35,619 nucleotides of DNA from a virus (Duplodnaviria > Caudoviricetes). Below the pieces are notes generated by a model. That model was not told where the DNA came from, did not search any database, and saw nothing but the letters and a program-made list of their open reading frames with translations. A program made the translations under genes and the position numbers. Shown here piece after piece: positions 21,042 to 33,880 of the stretch; position 1 is the stretch's first letter, and the number at the start of each line of letters is the position of its first letter. Where the stretch lies: IMG/VR virus record IMGVR_UViG_3300025018_000329, positions 1 through 35,619 of that record, one strand, 5' to 3'.

Positions 21042-21389
21042 ATGTTTGAACTATTCAAAGTGATCTTGGATGGCGGCGGGGTGCTCGCGTTTGCATTCGT
21101 TGTGTGGTGGGAACTTCGCGCCGTGCGCGCGTCCCTTGCCGAGATCTCGACAAACCTCGCGACGAGCCTCGGGCGGCAGCACCAACTCATAGAATGCAGT
21201 GTCAAAGCATGTCCCGTGCACGCGCATCTTGAGCGCCAGGAATTGCGCGAACACGGCGAGCGCCGAGCGGGCGCCGTCAGGCGCCACGCCGACCTGCCGA
21301 TCGTCGCGGATACTCTCGACGAGGGCGACGAGACGGCCGAGGGGTACGACGCCGCGTGGGAGAATAGGGCGGGAACGGGGCGGGAATGA
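21042..21389 (+). CDS. Membrane protein, holin-like
   Basis: N-terminal TM helix GGVLAFAFVVWW and charged C-terminus; directly before the spanins. Confidence 0.5.
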   Translation: MFELFKVILDGGGVLAFAFVVWWELRAVRASLAEISTNLATSLGRQHQLIECSVKACPVHAHLERQELREHGERRAGAVRRHADLPIVADTLDEGDETAEGYDAAWENRAGTGRE

Positions 21390-21751
21390 GTGCACTCACT
21401 ATCGCATCGATCGCCGGTAATGCGATCGCAATCATTGGGGTAACGATCTTAGGAGTCATGTATGGGAACGCAAAAGCCAAGGCATCCAAGCTCGAGGAGC
21501 AATTTCTACATGAGCGCGTTGCCACATTCGTCGTCGCTGAGCGCTCGGCTCGGTTGCAAGACGTCGTCGCCAGCACCACGACCGACCTCGAGGAATGTCG
21601 CGTGGCGTTGGCTAATGCTGGCACCGCTCCTGCTCTTGCCAATCGTTTCAACAACGTGCTCGAGCGGCTCCGTCGCAACGGTCGTCCCGGTGGCGGGGCC
21701 GGGGTGCCTGTCAAGCCCACCGCCGATGCCGCCAAACAAGGAGGCAGGTGA
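21386..21751 (+). CDS. Inner-membrane spanin (Rz-like)
   Basis: N-terminal TM followed by coiled coil; overlapped by a lipoprotein gene in another frame. Confidence 0.7.
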   Translation: MSALTIASIAGNAIAIIGVTILGVMYGNAKAKASKLEEQFLHERVATFVVAERSARLQDVVASTTTDLEECRVALANAGTAPALANRFNNVLERLRRNGRPGGGAGVPVKPTADAAKQGGR

Positions 21752-21926
21752 TTGGGCGAAGTCATTCGGCAATGAGGCAACGTGCGGCACGGGCGATCCC
21801 ATTGTTGACGACTTGGTATGTTTCATGCGCGAGGATTTCGGCGACGTCGTCGTTTATCTCGAGATGCTCGCCGACTATGCGCAAAACGCGTGGACACTTT
21901 GCAAACCAACAGAGGTGACAAAATGA
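21615..21926 (+). CDS. Outer-membrane spanin lipoprotein (Rz1-like)
   Basis: MLAPLLLLPIVSTT-C signal with atypical lipobox, Pro-rich PPPMPP, extra Cys; starts inside the i-spanin. Start uncertain. Confidence 0.65.
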   Translation: MLAPLLLLPIVSTTCSSGSVATVVPVAGPGCLSSPPPMPPNKEAGDWAKSFGNEATCGTGDPIVDDLVCFMREDFGDVVVYLEMLADYAQNAWTLCKPTEVTK

Positions 21927-22177
21927 CGTGGCTCTTGGAAAATTACGGGAAACTATTTGAGATATTCGGGACGGTCGTTACGGCGGCCACGATGGTCGTC
22001 ACGGCCATGGGCGCAATCATGCCGCAAGCAACGTGGGACAATTGGATGCTCAAGAAATTGGCGTGGCTCGCCGACAAGCTCTCGATCTTCACCCCGGATT
22101 CCCTGGGCGCCCGTGCGGTGTTTAAGGTTCTGCCAGACGGGGACTCGGCCGAGCTAAAGAAGATCGGGGGTGTGTGA
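21923..22177 (+). CDS. Holin-like membrane protein
   Basis: ATGA-coupled, GAGG RBS; 84 aa with TM helix IFGTVVTAATMVVTAMGAI then an amphipathic helix. Confidence 0.55.
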   Translation: MTWLLENYGKLFEIFGTVVTAATMVVTAMGAIMPQATWDNWMLKKLAWLADKLSIFTPDSLGARAVFKVLPDGDSAELKKIGGV

Positions 22178-23927: not shown

Positions 23928-24890
23928 CTACTCGTCGAGCAGCGCGAACAGCGGGCCATGTTGTTGGGACGGGCGAAGCGGTGGCGCATCGGCCACGGCG
24001 CCCCGGCACGCCGGCGAGAACCATATCGCCTCGAGTGACTTGGTTTTGTCACCGCCGTATGTGTTCGAGCCGCGTTCCCAGGGCACGAGCTCCCAACCCG
24101 GCAAGTCATAGTCGTCGACGTGGCCGCATATCGCGATGCGGAGATTCCCGTTTTGACCCGCCCACGTTGCAACGGCGTCGGCCGTCGGGGTGAAAGACCC
24201 GTAGAGTTTTTCATAGGCGCGATATGGTGGATCGAGGAACACCGCCGTGTTGTCGCCCCCGTAATGATGGTTCAGGCATCGGTGCCAGTCGCCATGGGTG
24301 ACGCGCACGCGCTCAAGGCGGGCTTGCAATCGCCTAAGCCAGTCGAGGGCCGTGCGCCCGCCGCTTGTCACCATCCCCACGTCGCCGTCGCCGCATCGCG
24401 CCAACACGCCCATGCCGGCGCTGCTCGCATGGGGAATCTGTCCCCGTGCTTGCACTCCCCTGCCGGCGTCGCCCGCCCATTCGCACCACCCGCTGCCGAT
24501 CCAGGCGCACTGGCCCCACAGCCACCATCCGGCAACTTGTGCGTCGCCGGGCCATTCCGGATCTTGCAAGGTGTCGCCGAGGCGCATCCGTTGATCGCCG
24601 AGCCACGCGTGGCGGGCGCCCAGGTCGATGTGGCTCACGGGATAGTCGGCCCATGACGCGACGGCGTCGGCGTCATGCTTTGTCGCTCGCCAAAAGTTTG
24701 CAATGAAGCCGTTCAGGTCGTTGACGACCTCGAGGGGCGCGACGTGCGGCGATGCGAGCAGCACCGCCGCCGAACCACAAAACGGCTCGATATATTGCTT
24801 GGGCGTGCCGAGGCGTTCCCAAATGGCATCGACGACGGATCTCTTGCCGCCAAAATACGGGAATGGGGCGCGGAGAGCATCGTCACTCAT
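23928..24890 (-). CDS. DNA adenine methyltransferase (Dam/D12 class)
   Basis: PFPYFGGK, YIEPFCGSAAV (motif I), VVND, VFLDPPY (motif IV). ATG 24890 chosen as start. Confidence 0.92.
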   Translation of the reverse strand: MSDDALRAPFPYFGGKRSVVDAIWERLGTPKQYIEPFCGSAAVLLASPHVAPLEVVNDLNGFIANFWRATKHDADAVASWADYPVSHIDLGARHAWLGDQRMRLGDTLQDPEWPGDAQVAGWWLWGQCAWIGSGWCEWAGDAGRGVQARGQIPHASSAGMGVLARCGDGDVGMVTSGGRTALDWLRRLQARLERVRVTHGDWHRCLNHHYGGDNTAVFLDPPYRAYEKLYGSFTPTADAVATWAGQNGNLRIAICGHVDDYDLPGWELVPWERGSNTYGGDKTKSLEAIWFSPACRGAVADAPPLRPSQQHGPLFALLDE

Positions 24891-24921
24891 GACGCCGAGC
24901 CCATTAGCAGCCGTGGTGACC

Positions 24922-25362
24922 CTACCATCCCCATCGACCCCATTCGTCGTCAATGTAATCGTAGATCAAAGACCAAAACAGCTCATCGGCGTGCATGCGA
25001 TCCGGATCAAACCCGGCGACCATACGGGCGCAATGGGCGAGCTCGTGCGCGAGCTCCGTGTCGGCCAATTTGTCGAAGGTCGGGACGTATATTTCATCGC
25101 ATCCAAACATGAGCCCGCCGACGCACTGGCCGTGCCATAGGACCGATGGGGTCTCCGTCCCGGGGCAAACGGTCGTCGTCCAGTATACCGTCGTCTTGAT
25201 CTCGGCGAGGTCCCACAGGTATGCGTTGCCGACGATGCGGAAAAGGTGCGCCTCGGCCTCGGCCTGATGCGGGCGCAAATCCTTTGAGGCCCATGGTATT
25301 CCGTTGGGGTCCGGGGCAAGGCACGCCCCGGACACGAGGGCAACAATCACGGCATGTCTCAT
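24922..25362 (-). CDS. Putative lipoprotein with HExxH zinc-metallopeptidase motif
   Basis: ATGA-coupled start MRHAVIVALVSGA-C; LAHELAH motif and a downstream His. Confidence 0.6.
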   Translation of the reverse strand: MRHAVIVALVSGACLAPDPNGIPWASKDLRPHQAEAEAHLFRIVGNAYLWDLAEIKTTVYWTTTVCPGTETPSVLWHGQCVGGLMFGCDEIYVPTFDKLADTELAHELAHCARMVAGFDPDRMHADELFWSLIYDYIDDEWGRWGW

Positions 25363-25790
25363 TCCCATTGTGACAACCATTTCCCCAATTCTGCTATCGC
25401 CGGGCGCTCGTCGTCCGGCACCATTTTCCAATATTTGCGCATCGTGTCGATGGCGGCGGCGATCGTGTCCCGCGACGGCCTTGGCGTCTTGTGCGGCAGC
25501 GGGCCGTGGTTGACGTTCGGGGTCACGTCCCACACGATCGCCTTGCGACCGGTCACCGTGCACGGGCGCTCGTCGACCTCGCGGATCAGACCCATCTCGC
25601 GGAGCTCCGTGAATCGTGCGCGCGATTGCGTGTAATTGGCCACGACGCCATCCGCCACATGGCCAAACAATTCGGCCGACGTCGCCGGGCCGTGATGGTA
25701 CAATGCCTTATACACATCGCGGCGGCGCCGTGAGAGCCCGCCGCCCTCGACGAGCGCTCGGTATGCCGCAAGGGACGTGCTCCGGGTCAT
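25359..25790 (-). CDS. Winged-helix DNA-binding protein
   Basis: VYKAL..GPATSAEL...RARFTELREMGLI...TGRKAIVW. Confidence 0.75.
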   Translation of the reverse strand: MTRSTSLAAYRALVEGGGLSRRRRDVYKALYHHGPATSAELFGHVADGVVANYTQSRARFTELREMGLIREVDERPCTVTGRKAIVWDVTPNVNHGPLPHKTPRPSRDTIAAAIDTMRKYWKMVPDDERPAIAELGKWLSQWE

Positions 25791-26002
25791 TTACTCACCC
25801 CCCGGGCGCCGATGTGCCACGGGCAATCGCCGTCGGCGCTGCAATCGTCGGGCGTGCACGGGATCTTGTGCCCCGGGGTACATTCGGACATCGAGTCGCC
25901 GCACGGCACAAGGTCATCGACGGAGCACCCGCACCCAAGGGTATAGAGGCCGTCAAATCCGTTTGCGCGCAGATAGTCTAGAACTATCAGCCTGGCTGTC
26001 AC
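25787..26002 (-). CDS. Small Cys-rich protein
   Basis: GTGA-coupled start; YLRANGFDGL..CGC..DLVPC; 7 Cys. Confidence 0.65.
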   Translation of the reverse strand: MTARLIVLDYLRANGFDGLYTLGCGCSVDDLVPCGDSMSECTPGHKIPCTPDDCSADGDCPWHIGARGVSK

Positions 26003-26301
26003 AGCGAGCACCCGGCCCACGCCCCGGCGGCCCAGTCGGTGACGGCGGCGAGGTGTCGGAGCACCCGGCCCCAATCGGCACGGTCAAGGCAAACCCATGC
26101 GGTGGTGCACACGTCATCGCCGCCCGGAGGGCAGCGCGTCACCTTGACGCAAGAGCCCGGGGCGTCGGGGTCCACGGGGAACGCCCCAGGGCCCTCGCCT
26201 TGCCACGGAGCGGCCGGGGGCGGCTCCGTGGCGCATGGGGCTTTCGGGGGCGGCGGGCAGGCGGACAACGCGAGGAGCGCCCCGATTATGAGCGGGCGCA
26301 T
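25999..26301 (-). CDS. Lipoprotein paralogous to the o-spanin
   Basis: GGAGG RBS; MRPLIIGALLALSA-C canonical lipobox; Pro-rich; C-terminus aligns with 21615-21926. Confidence 0.75.
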   Translation of the reverse strand: MRPLIIGALLALSACPPPPKAPCATEPPPAAPWQGEGPGAFPVDPDAPGSCVKVTRCPPGGDDVCTTAWVCLDRADWGRVLRHLAAVTDWAAGAWAGCSL

Positions 26302-26526
26302 TAGTGCACCTCCACAAGTCGGGCCCGGGCGTCCCGGGCGAGCACCTCGGACAGGGAAATATGGTCGATATGTTTCGCCGTGGACGATGGTGATCGTGAC
26401 GGGGCGCTTGACGCCGAGGGCCGAAAGCGACGCGAGCCGAGCCGAGATCTCGGCCCGCGTCGCCGCGAGATCCGTGACGTCGTCGGCGATGTGGAAAGTT
26501 TCTGTGAACGCATCGGGCAGGGTCAT
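26301..26526 (-). CDS. Hypothetical protein, apparently frameshifted near 26375
   Basis: ATGA-coupled start MTLPDAF. Codon bias moves +1 at GGCGAAACAT into a frame that ends with TAATG overlapping the next start. Confidence 0.45.
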
Positions 26527-27041
26527 CGGGGGCAATCCTTTCGCCGCCATCCTGGGCGCGGCGGGCATTTCCCGTGCACGGCGTCGAGCTCAGAAGCGAG
26601 CGCCGATCGTTGGGGCACGGGCCAATAGCGGACACGTTGACGGCCGGAGTGGTGCAAGAGCACCCCGGCGGGATATGTCAGGTCAAGACACCCGCGATAG
26701 GTGCCGGGCGCCTTGCGGGTCGTGTCGACAAACCATTTGCCATCGGGGGCCAATTTGCCCCACGGCCCGCGATCGATGACGCGCAACACCTCGCGGTCGC
26801 CCGTTTTAGGGTTCTCGACGATCACCCATGAGCCGAGGGCGAGTGTGCGGTGGGCGACGCCCGTGTCGAGCCGGGGCGAGCGCTGGAACCATATCGTCTT
26901 GCCGCCCGCCATCGAGTCGCCGTGGCCGATGACGCGCCCCGTTGACGGGTACACGTCGGCGGCCCGGTAGCCGTAGAGAGTCGAGCCGCACGACTGCGCC
27001 GGGGTCGAGGCCAAAAGCGCGGCGACGAGCTTCGCAATCAT
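26523..27041 (-). CDS. RlpA-like double-psi beta-barrel protein (lytic transglycosylase-like), probably secreted
   Basis: VAHRTLALGSWVIVENP..VIDRGP..LDLT matches the RlpA DPBB signature; hydrophobic N-terminus. Confidence 0.8.
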   Translation of the reverse strand: MIAKLVAALLASTPAQSCGSTLYGYRAADVYPSTGRVIGHGDSMAGGKTIWFQRSPRLDTGVAHRTLALGSWVIVENPKTGDREVLRVIDRGPWGKLAPDGKWFVDTTRKAPGTYRGCLDLTYPAGVLLHHSGRQRVRYWPVPQRSALASELDAVHGKCPPRPGWRRKDCPR

Positions 27042-30114: not shown

Positions 30115-30678
30115 TTAGATGTGGTCGCAAACGGCAAAAACGCCCCCGTTGTCGAACGCCGATTCAAAGCGGTCGAGATAGGGGCCGAAGTAAAAGAACG
30201 CCGACGGGAATGGGGCGCACGAGCGTTCCCAACGCCCCGTGCCCTCGTTCCAGCGGCTCGCCGGCTCGCCCGTGCCGGGGTCAACAAAGGTGAGCCGGCC
30301 GGGCCACAGATAGACAACTTGGCAAGCCCGGAACGCCTCGCGGAACCATCCTGTGTCCGTGCGCGCCGGGGTCAAAAGGATCGTCTCGCGCGATGCCGCC
30401 TCGGCCACGATCCGGGTGACCCAATGCTTAAGGGTCGACCCGTACGGGGGATTCGCAAAAACGTTCTCGGCCGCGGGCCACTCGCGCGTCCACCCGTGTT
30501 CGGGGCCCGTGCCGGGCGCAAGCCACGACGTGGCGCCGCATGGGTTATCTGCGGAGGCGCAGGGGTCAAGGCCGATGGCGCCGCCCAGGGCCCGCTTGAC
30601 GCGCGTCAGGGCCTCCGGGGGCGTTCGCCAGTCGTGGCGAGACGACGACATAACGGCCGCCATTTCGGCCGGGGTCAA
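30115..30678 (-). CDS. Phage DNA N6-adenine methyltransferase
   Basis: DWRTPP, LDPCA, VFANPPYG, LLTPARTDTGWF, GRLTF, APFPSA. Confidence 0.92.
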   Translation of the reverse strand: MTPAEMAAVMSSSRHDWRTPPEALTRVKRALGGAIGLDPCASADNPCGATSWLAPGTGPEHGWTREWPAAENVFANPPYGSTLKHWVTRIVAEAASRETILLTPARTDTGWFREAFRACQVVYLWPGRLTFVDPGTGEPASRWNEGTGRWERSCAPFPSAFFYFGPYLDRFESAFDNGGVFAVCDHI

Positions 30679-30863
30679 AGTCTGACGCCTCCGAAGCCGA
30701 GAAAGATCTGAACGCCTTGAGGCTCGCAATCGGCGCCCAAGCTCAGGTAATGCGATTTAAGCCGCACCACAGGATGGCGCAGTATTGCGCGATCGGCGTC
30801 AGTCTCGGGCGTCAGGACGACGCTCGGGCCGCCGGGGTGCTCGCCGGACACCTTGGCTTTCAC
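30675..30863 (-). CDS. Hypothetical small protein
   Basis: GTGA/TTGA overlaps at both ends. Confidence 0.55.
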   Translation of the reverse strand: MKAKVSGEHPGGPSVVLTPETDADRAILRHPVVRLKSHYLSLGADCEPQGVQIFLGFGGVRL

Positions 30864-30964
30864 TTGCCGCCCCATCCCCGCCACCCGGCAATGAGCGACA
30901 CGAGCATGACGACGGTCGCCATCGCGAGCAAGATCCATTCGGTGCGCGTGGGCTTCGCCATCAT
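30860..30964 (-). CDS. 34-aa single-pass membrane peptide
   Basis: MMAKPTRTEWILLAMATVVMLVSLIAGWRGWGGK; ATGA-coupled to the M23 stop. Confidence 0.55.
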   Translation of the reverse strand: MMAKPTRTEWILLAMATVVMLVSLIAGWRGWGGK

Positions 30965-31689
30965 CGCACCAACGCTGCCTCGAGGTAGACCCTCGGGTTG
31001 AGGCTGTCGGCATACCCATATCCGTCGGCGGCCGTCCGGCATTCAAAATGGCAATGGGGCGGGTCTCCCGCCACGTCGAGGTCGCCGGCAAGGATCGTTT
31101 CATGGGTGACAGGGTCGCCCACGTTGACCCGGATAGACGATCCCAGGAGGTGCAGGTAGCGGGTTTGGAGCCCGTCGGGATGCATGACGGTGATCATGTC
31201 GCCCTTGCCGCTCTCGAGCGTTCCACGGGCAACGACCTCGCCCCGTCCGTACGCGTACACGGGGCACGGCGTCGGCACGGCCCAGCGCCCCTCGCGCCGC
31301 TTTTTGGGCGGATCCCACCCGGGCACGATCTTAAACATCACATCGGCCCCGTGATGCCCGAGGTACCCGGGGCGGGGCTTGCGAGTAGGATTTTCGGACA
31401 TGTGGCCGCTCGAGATCTCCGGCATGAGCGCCGTCGATTCGCCCTCGCCCGTCGGGACCATCGCGGTACGCAATGGCCACCCCCGTGTGTAACGCGCCGT
31501 CTGCCGCGTCTCCTGCATCGCGGCGGACACCGTGTGCGGGCCAAACTTGCCGTCAGGCACGAGCATGTCGCGCCCGTCGAGGGCGTTCGCATTCCAAGTT
31601 GTTTGGAATTGCCGAACCACTCGGGTGATGTCGGCAAAGTCGTAAACCTTGCCGAGTCCGCGACGGTTGTAATCGTCGGCGGCGCTCAT
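30961..31689 (-). CDS. M23-family peptidoglycan endopeptidase with PG-binding N-terminus (candidate endolysin)
   Basis: VRQFQ..LVPDGKFGPHT (PG-binding); HHGAD (HxxxD), TRYLHL, PHCHFE (HxH). Confidence 0.85.
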   Translation of the reverse strand: MSAADDYNRRGLGKVYDFADITRVVRQFQTTWNANALDGRDMLVPDGKFGPHTVSAAMQETRQTARYTRGWPLRTAMVPTGEGESTALMPEISSGHMSENPTRKPRPGYLGHHGADVMFKIVPGWDPPKKRREGRWAVPTPCPVYAYGRGEVVARGTLESGKGDMITVMHPDGLQTRYLHLLGSSIRVNVGDPVTHETILAGDLDVAGDPPHCHFECRTAADGYGYADSLNPRVYLEAALVR

Positions 31690-31990: not shown

Positions 31991-33130
31991 TTACTCGGCC
32001 CTCTTGGCGGGGGTCAACAATTCCAACGATCTGGCGTGCATCGCACGCTTGACGGCGCGTGGCTTGGCGTACGATTGCAACGTCGTGCGCTCGTCGGAGT
32101 GGCCCAGCGAGTCGGCGACGACCCGCCCCGTCGCGCCGCGCTCGATGGCTAAAGTCGCATGAAGTCCGCGCATTGAGTGGGCTGTGACCTCGGGGATCTT
32201 GAGCTCGGCGCAGATTCTCTTGACCGCATGGAGCACCCACGACCGATAGTGGAAAGCGGGCGGGTTTCCGGTTGTGTTTTCGGATGGGCCCCTTGGACGT
32301 AGCTTGCGCGGGTCGGCGGGAAATAGTGGGTCGGTTAGTGGTCGGCATTTGACGTGCTCGGCAAGTATAGATCGCAACGGCTCGGGGACATCGAGCGTTC
32401 GATTGCCGGCGAACGTCTTGATCGAACGTTGACCATTGGCCGTCTCCCCCTCGTGAATCCAAAGCATGTCGCATGGCTTCTCGTTTTCGTCAAGATCCCT
32501 CACTAGGCAAGTGACGATCTCTGACGATCTCATACCAAGTAGGAGTGACATTATCGCCGCAATCGCCCCATGGTCGCCCGCCTTGGCGAGGTGAATTGCA
32601 TGGGAAAGGAACAAACGCGCTGCAGTGAGGCGCAGCTGATCTTTGCCCCTGCGCCGTCGCCCCACGCCCTCGATGTCGGCGAGCGGATTCTTGCGAAGCC
32701 ATTTGTTCTTGACTATCCACGTCGCAAACGTTTTGCACTGCGCGAGGATCCCGCGGTGACTGTCAACGGCGAGCTCCTTGGCGAGTGTTGAGTATCGCGC
32801 ATGGCACCATGCCGCGGTGATCGCCCACACGGGACGGGCGTCGTCGAAGAAGCGCCGGAGCGCCCACGCGGTGTGCTCAATGGACGTCCGCTTGTTACCC
32901 TTGGCGGTGAGATAGTCGACGTATTTCTCGATCGCGACCTCCGTCGTGAGATCGGTCGGGCCAAGCGTAGTCTTGTGGGCGCCGCGCACGTACTCGTCCG
33001 CCTCGTCCTCGTCGGCAAAGCTCACCCGCTTGCACGTGCCGGCGGCGTCAAACACCTTGACGATCCACCGCCCATCGCGGGCGGCGAAATGCGGCCCCAC
33101 GACCCGCGCCCCTTTTCTAGGACGTGCCAT
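31991..33130 (-). CDS. int: Tyrosine integrase
   Basis: LGMRSSEI (R), IKT (K), HSMR (HxxR), LGHS...TTLQSY (H, Y). Confidence 0.95.
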   Translation of the reverse strand: MARPRKGARVVGPHFAARDGRWIVKVFDAAGTCKRVSFADEDEADEYVRGAHKTTLGPTDLTTEVAIEKYVDYLTAKGNKRTSIEHTAWALRRFFDDARPVWAITAAWCHARYSTLAKELAVDSHRGILAQCKTFATWIVKNKWLRKNPLADIEGVGRRRRGKDQLRLTAARLFLSHAIHLAKAGDHGAIAAIMSLLLGMRSSEIVTCLVRDLDENEKPCDMLWIHEGETANGQRSIKTFAGNRTLDVPEPLRSILAEHVKCRPLTDPLFPADPRKLRPRGPSENTTGNPPAFHYRSWVLHAVKRICAELKIPEVTAHSMRGLHATLAIERGATGRVVADSLGHSDERTTLQSYAKPRAVKRAMHARSLELLTPAKRAE

Positions 33131-33250: not shown

Positions 33251-33283
33251 TTGACACCACACCGTAAAGCACTATGCTTTACG
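33251..33283 (+). promoter_or_regulatory. sigma70-type promoter with overlapping palindromic operator
   Basis: TTGACA (33251) -16 nt- TATGCT (33273); perfect inverted repeat CGTAAAGCA-CTA-TGCTTTACG (33263-33283) covers the -10. Confidence 0.7.
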
Positions 33284-33284
33284 T

Positions 33285-33665
33285 GTGAGCGACATGGCGC
33301 GGTCTAAGCAGGTTTTTGTTAGGTGCACGGACGAGGAATACGACCTTTGGCGGGCGGCCGCTGGGGCCGATTCACGATCGCTGTCATCGCTCGTGCGGCA
33401 TTTGCTCACGCAACACTTGGCCGAGAATCCCTTGCCCGATATCCGTCACGCCCCCGGCGAAACCACGGGCGAGGTCGTCCCGGAGCTTTCGCTTTCCGAT
33501 GCGCAAGCGTACCTGTCCACGCGGCTCGAGCGTTATGCGATCCTAAATGAAAAGCGCCGGACGGAGCCCCTGACGGCCCGTGAGGTTTTCGAACTCCACA
33601 AAATCGAATACGCCAGAGCCGTCGTTGCGGGGGCGTCGGCGTCGGGCAAGGCGTCGGGCAAGTGA
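33285..33665 (+). CDS. Ribbon-helix-helix DNA-binding protein with C-terminal extension (candidate repressor)
   Basis: RSKQVFVRCTDEEYDLWRAAA..RSLSSLVRHLL fits the CopG/Arc/MobC pattern. Confidence 0.75.
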   Translation: MSDMARSKQVFVRCTDEEYDLWRAAAGADSRSLSSLVRHLLTQHLAENPLPDIRHAPGETTGEVVPELSLSDAQAYLSTRLERYAILNEKRRTEPLTAREVFELHKIEYARAVVAGASASGKASGK

Positions 33666-33724
33666 ATGCCGATCACTGCGACGTGGTGACTGTGGGTGTT
33701 ACTGTGGGTGCCGGAGAGGCACTC

Positions 33725-33880
33725 ATGGGAGATCCCAAGGATAGAAAGATCGTCGTGCGGTGCACGGCGGCGGAATATGAGGCGTGGCGGGCGGTGGCGG
33801 AAGCCGGCGAGCGCACGGTTGCGCAGTGGGTGCGTTACCACCTCAACAGGGCAGCAAAACAGATCGGGGGGGGATCATGA
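33725..33880 (+). CDS. Minimal ribbon-helix-helix protein, paralog of the upstream gene
   Basis: GGAGAGG RBS; KDRKIVVRCTAAEYEAWRAVA..RTVAQWVRYHL. Confidence 0.75.
   Translation: MGDPKDRKIVVRCTAAEYEAWRAVAEAGERTVAQWVRYHLNRAAKQIGGGS

Follow-up and report, generated by a model that had tools for sequence, protein, structure and literature searches.

A stand-alone paralog of a late o-spanin-like lipoprotein in the leftward operon of a probable myxobacterial phage

A stand-alone lipoprotein encoded in the leftward operon of a temperate tailed phage is a paralog of the o-spanin-like ORF in the late cassette of the same genome, and we consider it, at a rough probability of 40%, to be an old paralog that acts as a second o-spanin by pairing in trans with the single i-spanin-like protein of the phage. 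The window, that is, the whole stretch of DNA analysed, is a complete record of 35,619 nt that profile and library scans identify as a temperate tailed phage, uncultured. Its plus strand encodes the terminase, an SU10-type portal and structural proteins; an operon on the minus strand has integrase, replication and methylase genes. The sequence set that matches it best, probably its source, is an aquifer metagenome. The name "early" for the leftward operon, and for the lipoprotein copy within it, is inferred from gene content. The lipoprotein gene and the late cassette comprise the following features:

25999..26301, minus strand: stand-alone o-spanin-like lipoprotein (early copy), 100 aa, with lipobox LSA-C15, Pro-rich linker, predicted beta-hairpin and C-terminal helix, and 6 further Cys
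26307..26313, minus strand: strong Shine-Dalgarno sequence GGAGGTG before the lipoprotein ATG
21042..21389, plus strand: holin-like small protein with one N-terminal hydrophobic segment, without a family hit and labelled from its position
21386..21751, plus strand: i-spanin-like protein, 121 aa, with an N-terminal TM segment, a helical periplasmic part and one Cys
21615..21926, plus strand: late o-spanin-like ORF (late copy), 103 aa, overlapped in the +1 frame, with atypical lipobox STT-C15 and a very weak RBS
21923..22177, plus strand: second small membrane protein of the late cassette, holin-like

Paralogy and anatomy of the two lipoproteins

The original prediction had aligned the two lipoproteins by eye, and the alignment proved to be significant. 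BLASTP of the early copy against the late ORF gave 23/77 identities (30%) at E=1e-7, the Smith-Waterman score of 78 was equalled by 0/20,000 shuffles of either sequence, and the ungapped C-terminal block, scoring 63, was likewise equalled by 0/20,000. Among 675 six-frame segments, the late ORF was the top non-self match of the early copy (78, followed by a Pro-rich segment at 71), and reciprocal tblastn across the whole genome connected the two at E=5.6e-5 and 1.3e-4. A default all-against-all blastp of the 41 genes did not recover the pair and no DNA-level similarity is left between the copies, indicating that the split is old. Both share Cys 15, another Cys that precedes a PPP run, and the block C..R.D.G.V...L....D.A..AW..C, which spans 28 ungapped residues from Cys to Cys, so that the same residues have been kept by both copies over a long divergence. 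In each copy C15 is the Cys predicted to carry the lipid, and the cysteines in the quoted "APC/PGC" motifs are the second Cys (C23, C31).

The early copy begins with MRPLIIGALLALSA followed directly by the lipid Cys, and the motifs quoted for it are present. Its lipobox and RBS had been described as better than those of the late copy, and both descriptions hold. In a pattern match made without a signal predictor, the early lipobox fits [LVI][ASTVI][GAS]C whereas the late STT-C15 does not, and STTC has 0 occurrences in SpaninDB table S1, in which other x-x-T-C boxes were searched in part. With a generic anti-SD sequence, the early RBS scored -10.6 kcal/mol, the 2nd strongest of 27 genes, as against -1.5 kcal/mol for the late copy, the weakest (27th of 27); the late ORF still looks translated, since codon bias in its non-overlapping part is normal. 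The early frame is intact with a GC3 of 0.84, and 15 of its 86 mature residues are Pro. Its highest 19-residue hydropathy, 1.09, lies at the N-terminal signal, and a unimolecular spanin of the T1 gp11 type was rejected for lack of the C-terminal transmembrane segment that this type requires.

Several features set the early copy apart. An 8-residue insertion bears an extra Cys pair, and the six periplasmic Cys exceed the maximum of four among SpaninDB o-spanins. The net charge of the helix is 0 in the early copy vs -3 in the late copy, so that the early helix, being less acidic, may be a poorer match for the basic i-spanin. The two copies are alike in having Ala at +7, which according to PMC5562445 is a sign of inner-membrane retention in Myxococcus xanthus; by the M. 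xanthus rule this suggests that both copies would be retained in the inner membrane, although the rule may not hold for this host. Single-sequence AlphaFold models were weak (mean pLDDT 57.5 and 47.3), the early copy being modelled as a hairpin and a 23-residue helix at moderate confidence, and fold searches returned nothing significant (BFVD best E=1.1, PDB best Z=4.2). A complex prediction with two i-spanin and two early lipoprotein chains scored 0.00 with an uncertain partner fold, and speaks neither for nor against pairing.

The late cassette and resemblance to known o-spanins

The late ORF overlaps the i-spanin-like gene by 137 nt in the +1 frame and starts at 0.63 of the length of the 121-aa protein. 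Overlapped +1 architecture is typical of spanins (PMC6139136), and we infer that the late pair is a two-component spanin. The late copy thus has a type II inner-membrane protein encoded close by and the early one does not, in agreement with the original prediction that the latter has no adjacent i-spanin: no TM partner lies beside it and the nearest candidate is 4,248 nt off on the opposite strand. Apart from the spanin-like pair, the late cassette holds the two small membrane proteins and no recognisable endolysin or other wall hydrolase. The cassettes of two related Myxococcota prophage contigs, G180:C39 and G215:C3, differ from that of this phage; in the equivalent place of G180:C39 (locus L085, 524-1900, minus strand) there is an ORF with two hydrophobic segments and an internal lipobox after them, followed by genes for a helical protein and a hydrolase-like protein, all named by eye.

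The o-spanin identity of either copy is based on anatomy, gene architecture and a profile resemblance below significance, with no family hit. No match of either copy in Pfam, PHROG or NCBIfam passed E=0.1, the best being phrog_3198, an Rz-like spanin, at E=0.73 over residues 8-31. Two o-spanin families were compared directly, that of T4 PseT.2 and that of Bdellovibrio phages, the likeness to the latter having been noticed in SpaninDB table S1. Profile comparison with hhalign gave P=0.002 and a probability of 15% against T4/T5 o-spanins and P=0.037 against Bdellovibrio-phage o-spanins, BLASTP against the latter gave E=0.7-0.9, and hmmsearch was not significant against either set. Membership in the T4 PseT.2/T5-type family therefore finds no significant sequence or profile match, and the similarity lies below the 40% identity over 40% length that SpaninDB uses; for the Bdellovibrio phi1402 family there is likewise no significant sequence match.

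When the 41 phage genes were ordered by hhalign P-value against the T4/T5 o-spanin profile, the two copies took the first two places, and the TM protein at 21386-21751 ranks 1st of 41 against the i-spanin profile (P 0.004-0.012 overall with the i-spanin test included). A 24-column profile, built solely from 12 T4/T5-type and 3 Bdellovibrio-phage o-spanins, gave the late block the top rank among 43,788 windows and the early block rank 28; column-shuffled profiles equalled the late rank in 8/1,000 cases, the early rank in 78/1,000 and both in 1/1,000, and with the Bdellovibrio profile alone the early block ranked 325th. This rank test is biased in favour of the resemblance, as the families were chosen after it had been seen and the anchor was set by hand. 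At the sequence level, the likeness of both copies to the C-terminal helix of o-spanins from T4/T5 and Bdellovibrio phages, clearer for the late copy, stays below family significance, and the profile ranks support the reading that they work like a helix-type o-spanin, not that they belong to either family.

The duplicate is known from one genome alone. A word search of 5.8 billion proteins with both copies returned only the record of the window itself, and IMG/VR, JGI metagenomes and INPHARED held no homolog of either copy beyond that record. The sole other match in a phmmer search of 1.84 billion proteins (E=8e-5) was a repetitive protein of 1,727 aa and was discarded, and the best ESM Atlas match, at 0.78, is a lead only. 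In 401 Myxococcota genomes, searched with two alignments (A1 and A4), 49 matches at E<=0.1 and 17 at E<=0.05 were near chance, and the top 8 were mostly off-frame, none of them a lipoprotein.

The leftward operon and the probable host

The genes around and upstream of the early copy that bear on its role are these:

24922..25362, minus strand: second predicted lipoprotein, with a HELAH motif, unrelated to spanins and without a family hit
26301..26526, minus strand: gene X, ~74 codons, whose start overlaps the stop of the RlpA-like gene and whose shifted-frame stop overlaps the lipoprotein ATG
26523..27041, minus strand: RlpA-like putative lytic transglycosylase with an N-terminal signal-like segment (TIGR00413 E=0.0026, below the curated cut-off)
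30961..31689, minus strand: M23 peptidase, candidate endolysin, at the head of the leftward gene run (PF01551 E=2.4e-10; phrog_6700 endolysin E=6e-6)
31991..33130, minus strand: tyrosine integrase, the basis of the host assignment to Myxococcota

From RusA down to the gene carrying the HELAH motif, which we take to be of HEXXH type and possibly a zinc peptidase, adjacent genes overlap throughout, by 1 to 7 nt each time, indicating that the lipoprotein gene is an integral part of the operon. Directly downstream of it lies a gene for a 71-aa Cys-rich protein without a family hit (25787-26002, minus strand). The M23 peptidase and the RlpA-like protein, the latter encoded two genes upstream of the early lipoprotein and matched in 17/391 Myxococcota genomes at E<=1e-8, are the only two recognisable wall hydrolases of the genome, and both belong to this integrase and replication operon. 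These hydrolases were overlooked in the original prediction, and a dispersed lysis system, as in T4, would be a simpler reading than a decoy; because the lysis genes look dispersed, the early position needs no decoy explanation. With 41 genes scored, no i-spanin-like TM segment was found in the leftward-operon genes, and tblastn with the i-spanin over the genome uncovered no second i-spanin remnant.

In gene X, codon bias favours the +1 frame from about 26373 onwards, and the shifted reading beats the unshifted one by 35 bits, a margin equalled by 0/3,811 control windows; the frameshift is an insertion, an assembly error or a programmed shift. The unshifted frame, as assembled, runs into the lipoprotein in frame, which explains a 175-aa database call, and the RBS of the lipoprotein itself would still yield the 100-aa form. 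Among contigs matching the region of gene X and the lipoprotein there was no variant, the single covering contig being probably the same DNA. Gene X was also considered as a decayed i-spanin and rejected, as it has no TM segment and no i-spanin similarity (1,696/3,000 shuffles score as well).

The host is likely a member of the Myxococcota, as judged from tyrosine integrase matches. An 11-codon motif of the integrase was found at 65 genome loci; record titles give Myxococcales, Polyangia or Kofleriaceae for 59 of these, delta proteobacterium for 2 and Pseudomonadota for 4. The best integrase match has 39% identity over 388 aa. The capsid profile matched in 4/401 Myxococcota genomes, and a capsid-pattern scan of genome contigs gave no match. 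None of the cultured phages is close: of 59 records with terminase matches, the 15 listed align over <=35% of the protein, with identities of ~30-36%. A Kofleriaceae element (L025, 7211-14742) has a similar integrase (39%) adjoining an M23 gene, among otherwise non-phage neighbours. Elsewhere in the window, two tandem Arc/ribbon-helix-helix repressor-like paralogs (33285-33880, plus strand) diverge from the integrase behind a 10-of-12 sigma-70-like site at 33251-33278, and two distinct adenine DNA methyltransferases (PF02086 and PF05869, at 23928-24953 and 30115-30729, minus strand) are encoded by this single 35-kb phage. Promoter and terminator scans of the window were near chance, and no RNA data are listed as carrying its sequence.

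Possible roles of the lone copy and known systems

Given the paralogy, the early copy would most readily be explained as a working o-spanin. It would be lipidated and exported, and would accumulate before lysis without harm, since intact peptidoglycan blocks spanin action, as is established for lambda and T4. On wall breakdown it would meet the i-spanin-like protein, encoded 4.2 kb away, in trans, and would there supplement or replace a late copy that is weakly translated, poorly signalled and overlapped. At 30% identity with no DNA similarity, it may have arisen by an old duplication or by pick-up from a related phage. Homology, the intact frame, the consensus lipobox, the strong RBS, the tight operon coupling and two hydrolase-like genes in the operon vs none in the late cassette favour this reading. 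The six periplasmic Cys, together with the Ala at +7 in both copies, speak against o-spanin identity, and the largest spanin gene separation in PMC6139136, ~1 kb, counts against trans pairing over 4.2 kb. Of the four roles first proposed for the lone copy, that of an alternative partner is the best supported, while those of decoy, exclusion factor and fusion factor are without direct support.

The early copy could instead have become an envelope lipoprotein outside lysis, derived from an o-spanin and now serving superinfection exclusion, envelope remodelling with its RlpA-like and HEXXH neighbours or outer-membrane exchange as cargo. We regard this as doubtful. It would fit the greater distance of the early copy from known o-spanin helices (rank 28 vs 1), the insertion with its extra Cys pair and the two other predicted exported proteins of the operon, and myxobacterial prophage regions do encode lipoproteins that are exchanged between cells, according to PMC5562445; PMC6372800 gives traAB alleles for Haliangium and Sorangium. 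Such exchange makes a role beyond the infected cell conceivable. The residues retained by the early copy are, however, those shared with the late copy, library scans gave no similarity to any exclusion family, and both the host and its exchange system are putative. An improbable alternative is that the early copy is the idle left-over of a second lysis cassette, made up of the RlpA-like protein as endolysin, a lost i-spanin and an o-spanin; it does lie two genes behind a wall hydrolase with the frameshifted gene X in between, and duplication-then-deletion intermediates have been proposed for spanin architecture (PMC6139136). Yet frame, signal peptide, RBS and GC3 (0.84) are all intact and the block is conserved despite 70% divergence, and gene X, with neither a TM segment nor i-spanin similarity, does not supply the lost partner.

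The decoy reading, in which an earlier and more strongly expressed copy would tie up the i-spanin or the late o-spanin without supporting fusion and thereby slow or moderate the rupture of the outer membrane, seems to us quite improbable. The far stronger RBS and the altered helix charge would suit it. So would the in-frame upstream extension that exists as assembled: reading through it, were this to happen, would yield a 175-aa form anchored in the inner membrane. It is the holin, however, that determines when lysis occurs, and spanins act only after wall breakdown, which leaves little need for a brake. The decoy was also marked down because the early copy keeps the Pro-rich stretch, a motif essential for fusion in lambda Rz1 (PMC5295617). 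In the literature searched, an "anti-spanin" or "spanin inhibitor" has two passing mentions, neither describing such a protein. We think it more unlikely still that neither copy is a spanin; the two would then be members of an unnamed family of phage lipoproteins that does something else, and the late cassette would only look like a spanin pair. The lack of a family hit, the atypical late lipobox (STTC), the shared Ala at +7 and the different cassettes of the related prophage contigs point that way. Against it, the late ORF overlaps in the +1 frame the gene of a type II membrane protein where the structural genes end, and the late block ranks 1st by profile. Least probable of all is a scheme in which the two paralogs tune fusion in a myxobacterial phage, the lone copy being the first natural anti-spanin, which binds the i-spanin without fusing, perhaps in an outer-membrane form and a gene X read-through form anchored in the inner membrane, and is perhaps passed to neighbours by outer-membrane exchange.

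If the preferred reading of a second o-spanin working in trans is true, spanin genes can sit >4 kb apart on opposite strands, past the current 1 kb annotation limit, and such pairing could account for some "spanin-less" phages. A single i-spanin with two natural partners that are 30% identical to each other would also let binding and fusion residues be told apart. Lysis in myxobacterial phages is little charted, as SpaninDB table S1 gives no match for Myxococcus or Mx8. PMC6139136 proposes duplication as a route between spanin architectures, and a stand-alone duplicate of a phage's own o-spanin was not described in the literature searched; the lone-duplicate pattern is thus foreseen there but not shown in the searchable literature.

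Among known systems, the lambda Rz1 protein, compared at the level of overall layout, shares the lipid Cys, short linker, second Cys and proline run, and differs in being short, without a long helix and embedded in Rz. The o-spanins of the Bdellovibrio phages phi1402, phi1422 and MAC3UK (SpaninDB family phi1402) align gap-free with the C-terminal block, including the D and the last Cys, and share the overlapped architecture and a host from the former Deltaproteobacteria; they match pairwise at E=0.7-0.9 and are themselves predictions, and no o-spanin paralog was found in phi1402 or phi1422. T4 PseT.2/PseT.3 and the T5-type proteins (NC_000866; 12 o-spanins aligned) likewise have a lipoprotein with a Pro-containing linker, strand-turn-strand and a D...L...Y helix ending near a Cys, and in T4 the spanin genes lie beside pseT/alc, away from holin and endolysin. 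The T4 o-spanin is, however, single-copy and adjacent to its i-spanin, and the T4/T5-type proteins have no significant sequence match with the early and late copies. Phage lipoprotein genes without a linked i-spanin are reported for 31 genomes in PMC6139136, and these too are stand-alone lipoproteins without a neighbouring type II membrane protein; whereas those genomes have no identified spanin pair, the phage described here has a complete predicted pair together with a lone paralog of its o-spanin.
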